Origin: Gemmatimonadales bacterium
GTDB lineage: Bacteria; Gemmatimonadota; Gemmatimonadetes; Gemmatimonadales; GWC2-71-9
Length of the DNA stretch: 64,000 nt
Assembly: GCA_041615815.1 (NCBI GenBank)
Contig: JBFJCP010000015.1
Location: 1-64,000, forward strand
Direction: 5' to 3'
Shown here: positions 24,001-27,000 of the stretch, in pieces
Position numbering within the stretch: the first letter of the stretch is position 1
How the letters are laid out: each line of letters opens with the position of its first letter
Program-made: the position numbers

Positions 24001-27000
24001 CAGCCGGTCGTGCAATTCATGTGGTCAATCGGGCACACCATTCGGCCGAATGGTGAGATCCTGGAGGGCAACCCGGCCCCAGTGCAGGAGCCGGTGCCTC
24101 TGACCCGCGCGAACTTTCAGGAGTACTACGACCTCCTGATGCAGCGCGCACTCACCAAGCTCGGACTCGAAATGTGAGAGCCAGGACCTAGGCCGCTTCG
24201 CGATTGACCGCGCGGCCGTTTCGCGCAAAGTACCCTCTGGCCACACGCCACGCGGCCGCGACCGGCCGACTCGGTGATGCCAACAACTCGCCGAGCATGG
24301 CATTGGTGAGCCAGGGCGGCGCGAGCGAACGCTCGGCAGGTGATCGCTGCATCACGCGGCGTCCTACACGATCGAGAATCCTATGGCCCACTCGAGGCCG
24401 CAGCCGATCCTCGAGCGTGGCCAGCACCGTCTCGGGACATGCAGCCCCCACCAGTGCGTGGGCCCACGCCAGTGCGAAAAAGACGTGCTGGGACGCACCA
24501 GCCGCCGTCGCAACGCTCACCAGACGATTCCAGTCCAGCTCCTCACCAAATCGATCGATGACGGCAGCGATGTCACACAGAGTGCGCAGTCCGCCCACGA
24601 ACTCTCGAGAGAGGGCATGGTGGGTGCAGACGTGAAACAAGAGATCTTCCGGTGCGAAGACGAACGCCTGCGTGGACCCGATCTGGGTCGGACGGACCCT
24701 CGCCCATAGCTCGTCCACCGCCAACTCGACGCGAGTGGCTGGCGGTACGATGTGGCGATGTAACTCGATGACGACGCTTCCATCCGGAGAAACCAGGGGC
24801 GCTAGGTGGTGTGAATGCATCCGGTACCACGCGGCGCGCCGGTACCACTCCAGAGGACGGTAACCGCGAACTTCGAGGATCGCATTGGCCCGCTCCACGT
24901 CCCGCGTATGGAGAAGCAAGTCCAAGTCTTCCATGGGGCGTAACGCGATGTCCCCGTACACAGGCTCCGCCAACGCTGCGCCCTTGAGGACCACCGCATC
25001 GATACCTGCGTCGGCCAACCTCACGAGCGTGTGCTCGAGCTGGTTGTACAACCTGGCGTTCCGACTGCCGACCTCGTAGTAGCGCTCCATGAGAAACCGC
25101 AACGCCATTTCGGGAATGTCTTCGGAGCCCGCAAGGCGCCGGATCCGCGCGTAAAGCATCGGTCCAAGCCCCAGATCGTCCGCCCGAAGACAGAGTTCCG
25201 ACCACCGGAGCGGGCCATTGACGAGTCTGCGGAGCAGGCCGTGATCGGGGTGGGCCCGGCACGCAGTCAGGAGGAGCTGGGCTTCCAGACGTCTCACGCC
25301 CGTACCCTCCCCCGCTCCACCTTCAAGGCGTCCGCCACACAACGTCCGCCGATCACCCCATCGCTATACGTGATCCGATACGCCGGCACTCGCACCGCGA
25401 GTTCGCTCACATGCTGCAAGGCGTGCTCCTGGTGCTCGTGAAAATTCCAGCAGCTCGCAAGAAGCTCGAGGGCGGCAGGTGCCGGAGTCAGACCCACCAC
25501 GGCGTCGTCCGCGCCCGGCTGATAGTGGGGGAACACAATCGCGGCGATGGGCCGGGGACTTCGGACGATCCGAGTCCCCGGAAGACGAACATCACGTTTC
25601 CGTGTGGTCCACAGCCACTCTTGCGGCATTTCGGTGCCCGGATGGGTGCGTACCGCCGGCGTCTGAGGAAACGGGAACACCTGCCCCGAGCTGGGATCGA
25701 CCGGCAAGACGTCGTCGGACAGGTAGCCCCATCCATCGGCACAGAGCGTGGTGACGAGCGTGCTCTTTCCACGGCCTCGCTCGCCGGGAAACACCACCGC
25801 GTCTCCGTCCTTCCCGGCGGCGGCGGCTCCCCCGTGGAACCAGATCAAATCGGGCCGAGCATCGAGGAACAAACGGATGGTGGAATAACGAATGCAACGA
25901 AGCATCGCGGACACCGAACGGTCGCCCGGGGAGCTGTCGGGACTCCCGTGCATCAGGTAGCCGGCACCGTGCGGAACCACGACGAGCTCGCCCAAGAGAT
26001 GCCGAGCCGGCGGGCCGAGCATCCACCGGAAAATGTCACGGGTACCGGCGACGATCGCCCGCGCCTGGGAGGTGACGGCGACGCTCTGATCGCCAAACGA
26101 AACGTACAGGGTCTCAGCGACGTTCAAGAGGCGTGCAGCAGCCCGAGGGCTGTGAGTTGGGAGATCCCATGCTTCACGTCCGCCAGCAGTTCGGCGGCGG
26201 GTCGATCGACCCACCGACCGAGTTCCTCGGCAATTTGCCAGACGCTGCGCGAGCCGTCGCTCAGCTCCCAAATCGCCATGGCTGGCGCGTTGACTGCATG
26301 CGCCGTTTGCGATGCCGGCGCATAGAGAAGGGTCTCATCACCCAGCCGATAGGCTCGGACCCCTCGGGAACGCGTTGGACGCACGTGATCGGAGAGGACC
26401 ATGCGACTTGAGCGCGTGGCCGAGTCACGGGACACGGTTCGATTCCTCGATGTGTGCGGTTGCGCTGGTGACTGTGCCGATCGCGTCAGGGCCGCGGGAC
26501 GGCCCGCGACGCGTCAGAGGATTGGGCCGCCGTTCCCGCCGTTGTTCGCGTACTGCGCGAACGCCCTGGTGGGCAATGCGACGGATGCGAGGACCACAGG
26601 GAGCGCCCACCCGGCTCGGATGAGTGCGCGCCTGCTCACGGCTTTGGGATCCCGCTCCGGATCGTCAGGACGGGGGAGCGTTTCCGACATCAAGCCCTCC
26701 TGGCTGAGGTCTTCCGGGCTGGAGCGCCGCAAGAACTGCACCCCCGATAGGCACTACGTAACCGCTTTATCCTGCACCAATTAGCGCTTCGGTGAGCGAC
26801 CCCAAAACGGCAGTACCCGCGCAACACGGGCCGAGCCGGCTCGGCACCTAAGGCCGGTGTCGTGACGGTGAGCTACCCGGAGCGCCGCGCCCGCACCACT
26901 CGGAGATCGCTGGCGCGCCCTCGACAACCCCCCTAGTCCAACGTGGGGTAACACGCGAGGGTGAATCGAAATGTCTCGTCGGCGGCCACGGGATCGCCCC

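Follow-up and report, generated by a model that had tools for sequence, protein, structure and literature searches.

A four-gene candidate RiPP cassette of a Gemmatimonadales bacterium with a Tat-signal-like leader, an HprK-like kinase and an NTP_transf_5 nucleotidyltransferase

Popov et al. (Nat Commun 2026, PMC13381572) described a family of linear polyphosphorylated peptides (LPP; LppA/K/B/S/D/N) in Bacillota. According to this paper, phosphates are placed on Ser3 near the N-terminus of the core, possibly followed by sugars, and the S3Y variant was not phosphorylated. LppN had no activity in the heterologous host and the chemistry of the nucleotidyltransferase (NT) is therefore uncertain even in the model system. 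The family was defined via an archaeal-type (SipW-like) signal peptidase I, which is its leader peptidase, and is regarded by the authors as restricted to Bacillota; the supplementary data may list non-Bacillota relatives. In the work on LPPs and phosphorylated lasso peptides, PsmK, PadeK and LppK polyphosphorylate one Ser, the DD motif is required in the peptide-phosphorylating kinases, and PsmN is required for the hexose on the phosphate (PMC6993621, PMC8498205, PMC13381572).

Literature searches for the HPr-rel-A system, TIGR04352 or TIGR04353 resulted in no paper, searches by PF14907 or NTP_transf_5 found nothing, and none of the papers listed combined twin-arginine with RiPP, precursor peptide and PqqD. 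The words 'kinase' and 'nucleotidyltransferase' were not found in two RRE survey papers. Bufferins are made from DUF2282 precursors with Sec signal peptides, a DUF2063 RRE and MNIO-type enzymes, and reportedly no particular motif of the signal is read by the bufferin RRE.

The cassette presented here belongs to a soil-type Gemmatimonadota bacterium and lies in a window of 64,000 nucleotides, i.e. the whole stretch of DNA analysed (positions 1 to 64,000 of contig JBFJCP010000015.1, assembly GCA_041615815.1). Its small four-gene operon could offer a handle on the function of NTP_transf_5 proteins.

Layout of the operon and its enzymes

The ORFs of the peptide, the PqqD-type protein, the kinase and the NT, all four reported by the first-pass annotation, were recovered in place (Table 1). 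The longest ORF of the kinase extends over 25294-26271 and that of the NT reaches 25342. Due to the overlaps with the stop codons of pqqD (TTGA) and the kinase gene (GTGA), TTG 26127 and GTG 25297 are the likely true starts, and the resulting 277 and 369 aa correspond to the sizes of the orthologues; a GGAGG is located upstream of the NT start. SD-like sites were detected upstream of most non-cyanobacterial orthologous peptide starts. The sequence itself establishes the translational coupling of the four genes, a family of precursors in which the leader is conserved and the core hypervariable, the RRE, the intact HprK-type catalytic motifs of the kinase and the presence of an NTP_transf_5 enzyme.

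Table 1. Coordinates of the cassette features in the window.
Feature	Position	Strand	Basis or remark
Four-gene operon, translationally coupled	24188-26690	minus	order peptide, PqqD-type RRE, HprK-like kinase, NTP_transf_5
Precursor peptide gene, 58 aa	26514..26690	-	ORF and translation; stop 26514-26516
Shine-Dalgarno AGGAGG, 5-nt spacing to peptide ATG	26696..26701	-	direct sequence reading
GC-rich stem-loop, begins at peptide stop codon	about 26477..26517	-	folding
Discrete PqqD-type RiPP recognition element (RRE), 103 aa	26124..26435	-	PF05402
HprK-like P-loop kinase, 277 aa from TTG 26127	25294..26127	-	TIGR04352 below cut-off; TTGA overlap
NTP_transf_5 nucleotidyltransferase (NT), 369 aa from GTG 25297	24188..25297	-	PF14907; GTGA overlap

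The neighbouring ArsR-type HTH protein (26933-27904), pre-ATP-grasp protein (27865-29373) and lipoprotein-like ORF (22561-24177) were dropped as cassette members, as they are not recurrent in the sister loci. No ABC transporter was detected among the ORFs scanned at 20.8-30.2 kb of the window.

A hairpin of -26 kcal/mol had been noted between the peptide gene and pqqD. Its existence was reproduced, with a different energy: the 85-nt region folded at -35.1 kcal/mol (z -2.37), 2 of 200 shuffles folded equally well, and no U-tract was present downstream. Among the 16 orthologous loci examined, a z value of -2.7 or lower was determined in five and -1.7 in L087, and the stem-loop was missing where the gap is 27-28 nt. 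The structure is possibly an attenuator or an mRNA stabiliser setting the precursor:enzyme ratio.

The PqqD-type protein matched PF05402 with an E value of 2e-8 and 34.9 bits (cut-off 23.4), and the weak matches to TIGR03859 (8.9e-5) and TIGR04353 (1.3e-3) noted earlier were reproduced. In the PDB, a profile of 16 orthologues matched PqqD as well as TfuB1 and TbiB1, which are lasso B1 proteins. The predicted complex of the RRE with the peptide scored 0.37 (best of 3 controls 0.01) and was graded as weak support. Of 157 solved complexes 116 attained this mark, as did 2 of 215 mismatches; at 0.60 or under it was attained by only 18 of the 157 and by both passing mismatches. At least 87% of the predicted contacts agreed between the runs and the pLDDT of the partner was at least 59; RRE-leader complexes have already been solved and likeness to them may contribute to the score, and the prediction is not counted as evidence here.

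The kinase had no Pfam match, and its match to TIGR04352 was below the cut-off, as annotated before (E 3.2e-21, 75.7 bits against 200). The P-loop (GRGKST) and the acidic metal-binding pair (LSDD) are present; in 25 relatives H98, G120, K121 and D138 are invariant and S122 nearly so (motifs GxGKS and LSDD). The kinase profile matched the catalytic domain of HPr kinase/phosphorylase (1jb1, E 2.9e-8), and the top folds for the AF2 model (pLDDT 92.6) were PEP carboxykinases, whereas single-sequence PDB searches with the kinase and with the NT gave no match. In G346, the kinase match was flagged with '3 TGA'; this is an artefact, as the match extends into the frame of pqqD, and the ORF itself is intact. 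The NT matched PF14907 with an E value of 5.8e-55.

Precursor family, cores and sister loci

The 58-aa precursor consists of an acidic N-region, the leader SRRALIRAGWALPVVLASVALPTRAFA and a putative 12-aa core QYANNGGNGGPIL. The consensus of the family leader is [ST]RRAL[LIV]xAGWxxPV[VI]LAVxLPxxAxA and the tails are hypervariable. R21, W28 and P31 were invariant in an alignment of 24 relatives, from which the invariance of W and P is taken, since the motif used to select the larger set of 149 rows prescribes both residues. RR was present in 136-140 and Ala at -1 in 112 of the 149 representatives. The docking-type segment of the window leader, WALPVV, fits [Y/W]xxPx[LVI], the docking motif known from the leaders of lasso peptides and LPPs, which supports the RiPP reading.

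A profile search of all representatives resulted in 500 precursor clusters at 50% identity; a word-indexed search with the peptide matched only the peptide itself. When every six-frame segment of the genome (4.19 Mb) was searched, the leader profile gave one match, this peptide (E 1.3e-18), the next best being 0.25. An earlier peptide profile had been credited with 26 ORFs in 21 loci, and our own leader profile is in agreement with 25 ORFs in 21 loci (E 2e-21 to 7e-13). These loci are 20 of the 33 orthologous ones, the window included, and L088. In the other 13 orthologous loci the leader profile had no match; 6 of them are cut by contig ends and 7 are not.

The second cassette of the genome begins at position 96487 of contig C10 as claimed (G000:C10:96487; L003 8488) and has the order kinase, NT, PqqD, PRMT-like methyltransferase. 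Its peptide, g01522, had been listed as escaping the peptide profile. This is correct and is due to its membership in a parallel subfamily with a Y-type leader (RREFLKKLAKGAIYAAPVI); it is still a precursor.

The window core contains no Ser or Thr and Tyr2 is its sole hydroxyl residue. The tails of the 149 representatives are 1-262 aa long and rich in D (14.8%), G (12.8%) and H (11.6%). S, T or Y occurred in the first five core residues of 144 of 148 representatives compared to the 58% expected from tail composition, and Ser in 108 of 148 compared to 32%. With an AxA-like cut, S/T/Y was absent from 5 of 149 tails; counted from W+17, it was missing from the first five core residues in 4 of 148. 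Tyr is the second commonest residue at core position 2 (23 of 149). Among the 149 tail ends, Pro was the commonest (29 times) and Ser was found 5 times. Plausible guesses for the product, based on the mostly Asp/Gly/His-rich cores, are metal binding or a role at the surface or in the matrix.

This set of four genes was found again in Gemmatimonadota, ANGP1, Verrucomicrobiae, Cyanobacteria, Chloroflexota, Armatimonadota, Rhodothermales-type Bacteroidota and Proteobacteria, and the order PEP-PqqD-K-NT in loci of at least eight phyla; the kinase-based locus search used a 4-sequence alignment. No other gene family was common to more than 7 of the 33 loci, and no protease, exporter or cyclase was conserved across them. 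The NT is fused to PqqD in cyanobacterial orthologues, an NT-PqqD fusion was determined in L066 (PF14907 8.3e-63 and PF05402 2.6e-6), and PqqD is fused to the kinase in L083 and L085; these fusions tie the enzymes to peptide recognition. In rearranged loci the peptide gene is inverted (L078) or located downstream (L077, L083). L074 encodes a double NHLP leader (TIGR03793, 1.2e-37) carrying AGWVAPVV, with a lasso B2 (2.6e-28) upstream, and L085 also holds a PqqD-HExxH hydroxylase and YhhC. Radical SAM/SPASM maturases are present in sister loci with His-x-Asp repeat cores, which suggests further undescribed chemistry on the same leader.

A proposed pathway and its alternatives

The first-pass annotation had described the cassette as RiPP-like, with a precursor whose Tat-signal-like leader is conserved and whose tail is hypervariable. 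This description is supported by the synteny, the fusions, the [Y/W]xxP motif and the sister loci in RiPP context. With fair confidence, we consider the cassette an operon for the leader-guided tailoring of a peptide (RiPP), related to the phosphorylated lasso peptides and the Bacillota LPPs but Gram-negative and without a cyclase.

In such a pathway the PqqD-type RRE would bind the W-x-x-P-V-[VI] of the leader, in the way that [Y/W]xxPx[LVI] is recognised by lasso B1 and LppB, and would present the precursor, and the kinase would add at least one phosphate to a hydroxyl residue near the core start. The acceptor would be Ser in most family members; the window core offers Tyr2 only. The NT would then attach a further group to the phosphate, which by analogy with PsmN would be a hexose. 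The earlier statement that no modification chemistry can be named does not hold, as by analogy Ser polyphosphorylation by HprK-like kinases can be named, the NTP_transf_5 protein being needed for hexoses on the phosphate. The presence of only Tyr2 in the window core, together with the unphosphorylated LPP S3Y variant, counts against the proposed pathway, as do the tails without S/T/Y, the inactivity of LppN, the poor recognition of the leader by curated Tat models, the internal position of the leader segment in some precursors, the 13 of 33 orthologous loci missed by the leader profile and the low scores of both HPr-rel-A models.

Due to the lack of a protease and an exporter in the cassette and to the near-consensus twin-arginine leader ([ST]RRxL[LIV][KRQ], uncharged h-region, A-x-A), export would probably proceed by Tat (or Sec), with removal of the leader by the housekeeping signal peptidase I, and a decorated peptide of about 12 aa would be released into the periplasm or medium. 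TatC is encoded in the genome elsewhere than in the cassette (E 1.5e-64), and two bacterial-type signal peptidase I genes are located on other contigs; these genes point to a capacity for export and cleavage and are not a proof of use. The conserved part may be a genuine Tat signal, as the first-pass annotation had cautioned, and it may be the docking site at the same time. The fuller form of this idea is put forward tentatively, as possible but short of probable: a working twin-arginine signal would contain the RRE docking site WxxPV within its hydrophobic region, the RRE would act like a Tat-proofreading chaperone that masks the signal until the core is decorated, and Tat and the housekeeping signal peptidase I would then replace a dedicated exporter and peptidase. 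If true, Tat export would be established for a RiPP class for the first time, and this class would be spread across many Gram-negative and cyanobacterial phyla, with swappable cores (Gly/Asn-rich, His-x-Asp repeats, Thr/Gly repeats) and with W- and Y-type leaders insulating the two cassettes within one genome.

We find it unlikely that RRE-guided modification takes place on a leader which is merely a docking or membrane segment, with a product that is cytoplasmic, membrane-anchored (N-in, tail out, uncleaved) or exported by an unlinked transporter after an unlinked protease. The curated Tat models TIGR01409 and PF10518 speak for such a leader, since they gave one weak sub-threshold match among 30 representatives and missed the other 29, as does the position of RR, which lies among the first 35 residues of the protein as called in only 85 of 150 representatives. 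Moreover, the RR-W..P segment of cyanobacterial precursors is internal, behind a KilA-N domain (P0019 26.6 bits, P0034 30 bits; gathering score 23.8), and in the L074 precursor it follows NHLP domains and lacks RR with AGW..PVV retained; due to these fusions, a function as N-terminal signal is not universal. However, [ST]RRxL[LIV][KRQ] is retained in about 90% of the representatives, far beyond the needs of [Y/W]xxP docking, 122 of 150 satisfy a TATFIND-like rule (85 of these with RR among the first 35 aa), A-x-A is found at a constant distance from the leader motif, and the loci have no conserved protease or exporter. The resemblance to a Tat signal could also mean that the peptide is no more than a small protein secreted by Tat in the ordinary way, beside enzymes that act on another substrate, and the low-complexity tails of up to about 260 aa, some of them perhaps folded (L077), and the 13 of 33 orthologous loci in which the peptide was undetected would be in line with this. 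Such a protein is nevertheless very improbable: the adjacency is kept over at least eight phyla and through the rearrangements in L078, L077 and L083, the conservation is reversed compared to secreted proteins, with the leader and not the 'mature' part conserved, the invariant W..P equals the docking motif for RREs, enzyme-RRE fusions exist, and no other Tat substrate of the genome is scored by the leader profile.

Tailoring of a lasso peptide encoded, with its A, B2 and C genes, in another part of the genome would agree with the first known role of HprK-like kinases and NTP_transf_5 proteins as lasso tailoring enzymes, with the lasso B2 in one sister locus (L074) and with four Asn_synthase homologues in the genome. 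None of the four is on the contig of the window and none is beside the C10 cassette, the only Transglut_core3 match is a generic 536-aa transglutaminase-like protein on C20 beside an ABC transporter, a precursor and an RRE are both encoded in the cassette itself, and no cyclase is conserved across the 33 loci, so that we give this explanation hardly any weight. A lasso peptide gene cluster proper was rejected, as no lasso-type B2 (PF13471) was found in the genome and the Asn_synthase homologues are all on other contigs or distant from both cassettes. It is equally hard to credit that the chemistry is other than Ser phosphorylation, e.g. that the NT nucleotidylates Tyr2 directly or that the HprK-like protein is a phosphorylase or scaffold. 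The Tyr-containing core of the window without Ser and Thr and the frequent Tyr at core position 2 would allow it, and HPr kinase/phosphorylase is bifunctional; in the LPP system itself, LppN had no activity in the heterologous host. Against it, every characterised peptide-acting HprK-like enzyme is reported to phosphorylate Ser, and the core start shows a strong enrichment of Ser across the family.

If the signal-like leader of the favoured peptide-tailoring operon works, a RiPP pathway would hand export and leader removal to the general secretion machinery, and one short sequence would be both export signal and enzyme docking site.

Comparison with described systems

Kinship with the NCBIfam 'HPr-rel-A system' had been proposed for the enzymes. 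The pairing of an HprK-like protein (TIGR04352, HprK_rel_A) with a PqqD-family chaperone (TIGR04353, PqqD_rel_X) is shared and TIGR04352 remains the best NCBIfam match, but the cut-offs are missed widely, with 75.7 against 200 bits for TIGR04352 and 19.7 against 35 for TIGR04353. By these scores the cassette is not a member of the HPr-rel-A system, and its closest published relative is the LPP family (2026).

With paeninodin (PadeK) and pseudomycoidin (PsmK/PsmN), the cassette shares an HprK-like kinase with the DD motif and an NTP_transf_5-type transferase, as well as a PqqD-type B1/RRE with the [Y/W]xxP leader motif, W being used in paeninodin-type leaders. In contrast to the phosphorylated lasso peptides, the cassette has neither a B2 protease nor a macrolactam synthetase next to it, and the C-terminal Ser on which the lasso kinases act is not conserved in the cassette family. 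Bufferins, in which the N-terminal part of the precursor is an export signal and no dedicated exporter is required (PMC12710340), resemble the cassette with its signal-like leader. In the cassette, unlike in bufferins, the docking motif appears to lie inside the signal-like stretch.

The LPP system and the cassette both have a PqqD-like RRE, an HprK-like kinase with P-loop and acidic pair, and NTP_transf_5; in both, the N-terminus of the precursor is conserved with [Y/W]xxPx[VLI] and the C-terminus is highly variable, and the precursors are 35-200 aa long in LPPs and, for the best 150 of the cassette family, 48-314 aa. The core start has a hydroxyl residue in both, Ser3 in LPPs and within the Ser-enriched first five residues in the cassette family, whereas the window core has Tyr and no Ser. 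The LPP leader is removed by an enzyme of signal peptidase I type, and the cassette leader itself resembles a signal peptidase substrate. For the SipW-like LppS, TIGR02228 was unmatched in the 95.7%-complete genome and no such enzyme was conserved in the 33 loci; the MsbA-like exporter LppD is absent from the cassette and not conserved in the sister loci. The cassette leader carries W and not Y, is without the VLxHQxIxFETxxS part of the LPP motif YxxPxVLxHQxIxFETxxS and has, unlike the LPP leader, a twin-arginine motif, a hydrophobic stretch and A-x-A. In contrast to the Bacillota LPPs, the cassette was found in Gemmatimonadota plus seven or more further groups outside Bacillota.

Due to the lack of the SipW-like peptidase and the MsbA-like exporter, the non-Bacillota hosts and the Tat-signal-like AxA leader, the cassette is, judged by gene content, not an LPP member in the strict sense. 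The comparison of sequences supports its placement as an undescribed Gram-negative relative of the LPPs, which were first published in 2026. The cassette form is minimal, with four genes, no protease and no exporter, and the RRE-kinase-nucleotidyltransferase logic of the Bacillota LPPs also occurs in at least eight other phyla.

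Gene content and layout of the cassette

The four-gene cassette reported in the first-pass annotation was found on the minus strand at 24188-26701. Its interpretation as a RiPP system was supported by the recurring gene order, fusions of the RiPP recognition element (RRE) with enzymes, a conserved leader with variable tails and sister loci in RiPP settings. The distinctive and testable feature of the cassette is a signal-like leader that also holds an RRE docking motif.

The longest-ORF versions of the enzyme genes overlapped by 148 and 49 nt. Alternative starts were located: that of the kinase overlaps the pqqD stop as TTGA, and that of the nucleotidyltransferase (NT), preceded by GGAGG, overlaps the kinase stop as GTGA. 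Since these start-stop overlaps result in proteins of orthologue size, translation of the three enzyme genes is probably coupled. The peptide stop codon marks the start of a GC-rich stem-loop (-35.1 kcal/mol over 85 nt, z -2.37), and no U-tract follows the structure in the sequence. Among 16 sister loci, a stem-loop 3' of the precursor gene was frequent, not universal: z was -2.7 or lower in five (L062, L072, L079, L081, L084) and -1.7 in L087, and the structure was missing where the gap was just 27-28 nt. The ArsR-type, pre-ATP-grasp and EgtC-like neighbours were rejected as cassette members due to the lack of recurrence in sister loci.

Coordinates of the cassette, its neighbours and related loci (L numbers) of other genomes or contigs
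Feature	Location	Strand	Remarks
Peptide gene, 58 aa	window 26514-26690	-	ATG with AGGAGG upstream, 5-nt spacing
RRE, PqqD family, 103 aa	window 26124-26435	-	PF05402, E 2e-8
Kinase, P-loop protein, 277 aa	window, from TTG 26127	-	best named match HprK-related kinase A, TIGR04352, E 3.2e-21
NT, NTP_transf_5, 369 aa	window, from GTG 25297	-	PF14907, E 5.8e-55
ORF, 538 aa	window 22561-24177	+	lipoprotein-like N-terminus (…LAAC); convergent with cassette end; no match in Pfam or NCBIfam
ArsR-type HTH protein, 323 aa	window 26933-27904	-	cassette neighbour
Protein with pre-ATP-grasp domain, 502 aa	window 27865-29373	+	cassette neighbour
EgtC-like class-II amidotransferase	window 29361-30194	-	cassette neighbour
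Second cassette	contig C10 of the same genome (L003) 8488-12200		kinase, NT, PqqD, PRMT-like methyltransferase, 84-aa ORF
Lone HprK-like ORF, 321 aa	contig C17 of the same genome, 70373-70516 (L002/L004)		TIGR04352, E 3.7e-9
KilA-N precursors	L066 5602-6252; L067 151-1062; L088 2813-3610		KilA-N in frame before RR-W..P leader; Thr/Gly-repeat tails; also in P0019, P0034
Lasso B2/NHLP locus	L074 5908-7981		uncultured cyanobacterium; precursor 318 aa; NT on opposite strand
Hydroxylase/oxygenase locus	L085 5785-8786		gammaproteobacterium
H-x-D extra-gene regions	L062 3263-5999; L075 4370-7142; L079 4373-6604		likewise L081, L084

The kinase matched no Pfam family, and it scored 75.7 bits with TIGR04352, whose cut-off is 200; membership in the NCBIfam HPr-rel-A families was ruled out by such scores below cut-off. 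The His of the HG/HA motif, the Walker A G and K and the first Asp of LSDD were invariant in 25 kinase relatives, and the Ser of the Walker A loop was nearly so. A profile of 16 kinases matched the catalytic domain of HPr kinase/phosphorylase (1jb1, E 2.9e-8) across the conserved motifs. With the AlphaFold2 model, a confident one (pLDDT 92.6), the top structural matches were PEP carboxykinases (E 4.3e-7, TM 0.52 on the query), which belong to one fold superfamily with HprK/P. The translation of the NT contains the DLDLL acidic motif typical of its fold. The Asp pair equivalent to that of LSDD is described as required for PsmK activity (PMC6993621). By these motifs, the cassette enzymes look active. 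The lone HprK-like ORF of the same genome has an ABC transporter gene on one side and a gene for an MFS-type membrane protein on the other, and no PqqD was detected near it with the PqqD query used.

The peptide family and its leader

The leader profile matched 25 ORFs in 21 loci, which were 20 of the 33 orthologous loci (window included) and L088. Among the 13 orthologous loci with no match, six are truncated, with no more than 320 nt between the first cassette gene and the end of the contig, and the other seven are not; L074, one of the seven, has a precursor of another kind. In a search of 1.84 billion representative proteins, 500 representatives were obtained at E <= 1e-3 and 50 at E <= 1e-10. 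The consensus of the best proteins was [ST]-R-R-A-L-[LIV]-x-A-G-W-x-x-P-V-[VI]-L-A-V-x-L-P-x-x-A-x-A; RR...W..P was present in 149 of the best 150, and R21, W28 and P31 were invariant in the alignment of 24 relatives. The leader reached a curated Pfam or NCBIfam cut-off in none of 30 representatives. The tails varied from 1 to 262 aa and were rich in Asp (14.8%), Gly (12.8%) and His (11.6%), with at least three H-x-D units in 84 of 149. Other tail types were Thr/Gly repeats (cyanobacteria), Ser/Gly-rich ('Bacillati bacterium ANGP1') and Gly/Asn-rich (window peptide).

The leader agrees residue for residue with the twin-arginine consensus ([ST]RRxL[LIV][KRQ], an uncharged stretch, A-x-A), and the window peptide and 122 of 150 representatives satisfied an ad hoc TATFIND-like rule, as distinct from the output of a published tool. 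The genome encodes TatC, so ordinary Tat substrates are expected; the six-frame search of the whole genome with the leader profile resulted in the window peptide as the sole match (E 1.3e-18; next 0.25). Because one peptide was matched in a genome that should hold ordinary Tat substrates, the conserved part reads as a specific family signature rather than a generic signal. A KilA-N domain precedes the leader segment in cyanobacterial precursors (26.6 bits in P0019 and 30 bits in P0034, two representative proteins; gathering score 23.8), and in the L074 precursor AGWVAPVV comes after two NHLP leader domains and lacks RR. Both observations count against a signal role that is purely N-terminal. 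KilA-N is a domain of the DNA-binding type, and its apparent use to extend a leader is unexpected. As these precursors depart from the N-terminal RR layout, W..P appears to be the universal leader feature and RR a common one.

The W-x-x-P-V-[VI] of the leader agrees with [Y/W]xxPx[L/V/I/F/A], the motif reported to be bound by discrete RREs in the leaders of lasso peptides and linear polyphosphorylated peptides (LPPs), with W first in paeninodin-type and Y in LPP leaders (PMC13381572). We read the leader as a putative docking site that would double as an export signal in most lineages; the docking half is based on the published motif and invariance, and the export half we infer. The co-fold of RRE and peptide resulted in 'weak support' and was not used as evidence.

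Distribution and sister loci

A kinase relative (E <= 1e-5) was detected in 54 of 401 sampled genomes of the phylum, a tally that takes in the genome of the window and one unpublished genome (G097); close orthologues (39-55% identity) were found in only four of the sampled genomes. The one-genome-per-species scan resulted in 58 loci, 32 of them with E <= 5e-26, from Gemmatimonadota, 'Bacillati bacterium ANGP1', Verrucomicrobiae, heterocystous and filamentous Cyanobacteria, Salinibacteraceae, Rubricoccaceae, Thiotrichaceae and other Proteobacteria, Ardenticatenaceae, Caldilineaceae and Armatimonadota. The order peptide-PqqD-kinase-NT was repeated among orthologous loci. NT and PqqD form a single protein in Stigonema, Scytonema and Iningainema (L066: PF14907 8.3e-63, PF05402 2.6e-6), as do PqqD and kinase in L083 and L085, which ties both enzymes to peptide recognition. 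By all-against-all ORF clustering, no additional gene was common to more than seven of the 33 loci, and no conserved protease, exporter or cyclase was found among them.

In the second cassette, the ATG of the 84-aa ORF overlaps the methyltransferase stop. Its product begins with MKDEQRREFLKKLAKGAIYAAPVI... and continues into a Gly/Ser/Pro-rich tail; with the leader RREFLKKLAKGAIYAAPVI, it is by sequence a Y-type version of the window peptide's leader plan. Five other Gemmatimonadota loci (L040, L041, L045, L052 with two copies, L053) have similar peptides next to distant relatives of the kinase. Thus, one genome holds W-type and Y-type leaders. The Y/W choice, which is reported to keep LPP and paeninodin pathways apart where both are present (PMC13381572), might do the same for the two cassettes.

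In L074, the orthologous PqqD and kinase are preceded by a lasso B2 gene (NF033537, 2.6e-28) and an NHLP-leader precursor (TIGR03793, 1.2e-37). L085 encodes a fusion of PqqD with an HExxH peptide hydroxylase, a YhhC-type oxygenase (1.2e-48) and the PqqD-kinase fusion; no precursor was identified in this locus. The hydroxylase is of the peptide beta-hydroxylase type and the oxygenase is a 2OG-Fe(II) enzyme. In the H-x-D-core loci (L062, L075, L079, L081, L084), genes for a radical SAM/SPASM peptide maturase and a methyltransferase-domain protein are directly upstream of the precursor. The nearest NCBIfam models of the maturase were the cyclophane-forming AmcB, DynA, YhhB and GrrM, all far under cut-off; three-residue cyclophane chemistry on H-x-D may be combined with the RRE/kinase/NT module. 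Judged by gene content, the sister loci strengthen the RiPP reading of the cassette.

Comparison with lasso and LPP systems

Lasso tailoring was the role known earlier for HprK-like kinases and NTP_transf_5 enzymes: PadeK and PsmK are reported to add one to three phosphates onto the C-terminal Ser, and PsmN to be required for one or two hexoses on the Ser phosphate (PMC6993621, PMC8498205). The cassette was ruled out as a lasso system. LPPs were described in May 2026 by Popov et al. (PMC13381572), according to whom LPPs and paeninodins are confined to Bacillota. Their report gives precursors of 35-200 aa that are conserved at the N-terminus and variable at the C-terminus, up to four phosphates added by LppK on core Ser3, an S3Y substrate not accepted by LppK, and an LppN inactive in the test host.

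Strict LPP membership was ruled out, as both family-defining features are missing: no archaeal-type signal peptidase I was found in the 95.7%-complete genome, which encodes two bacterial-type signal peptidases I outside the cassette, and no exporter in the cassette. The window core QYANNGGNGGPIL also differs in having Tyr as the sole hydroxyl residue. In contrast, the architecture of RRE, kinase, NT and precursor is common to the cassette and LPPs, and a hydroxyl residue near the core start parallels the acceptor Ser3. With the core start set approximately, at a fixed distance from W, 144 of 148 representatives had S/T/Y within the first five residues past A-x-A (58% expected from tail composition), and 108 of 148 had Ser there (32% expected). 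The cassette is a variant of the recently published LPP-type systems; by analogy, it would work like an LPP system, outside the family as originally defined.
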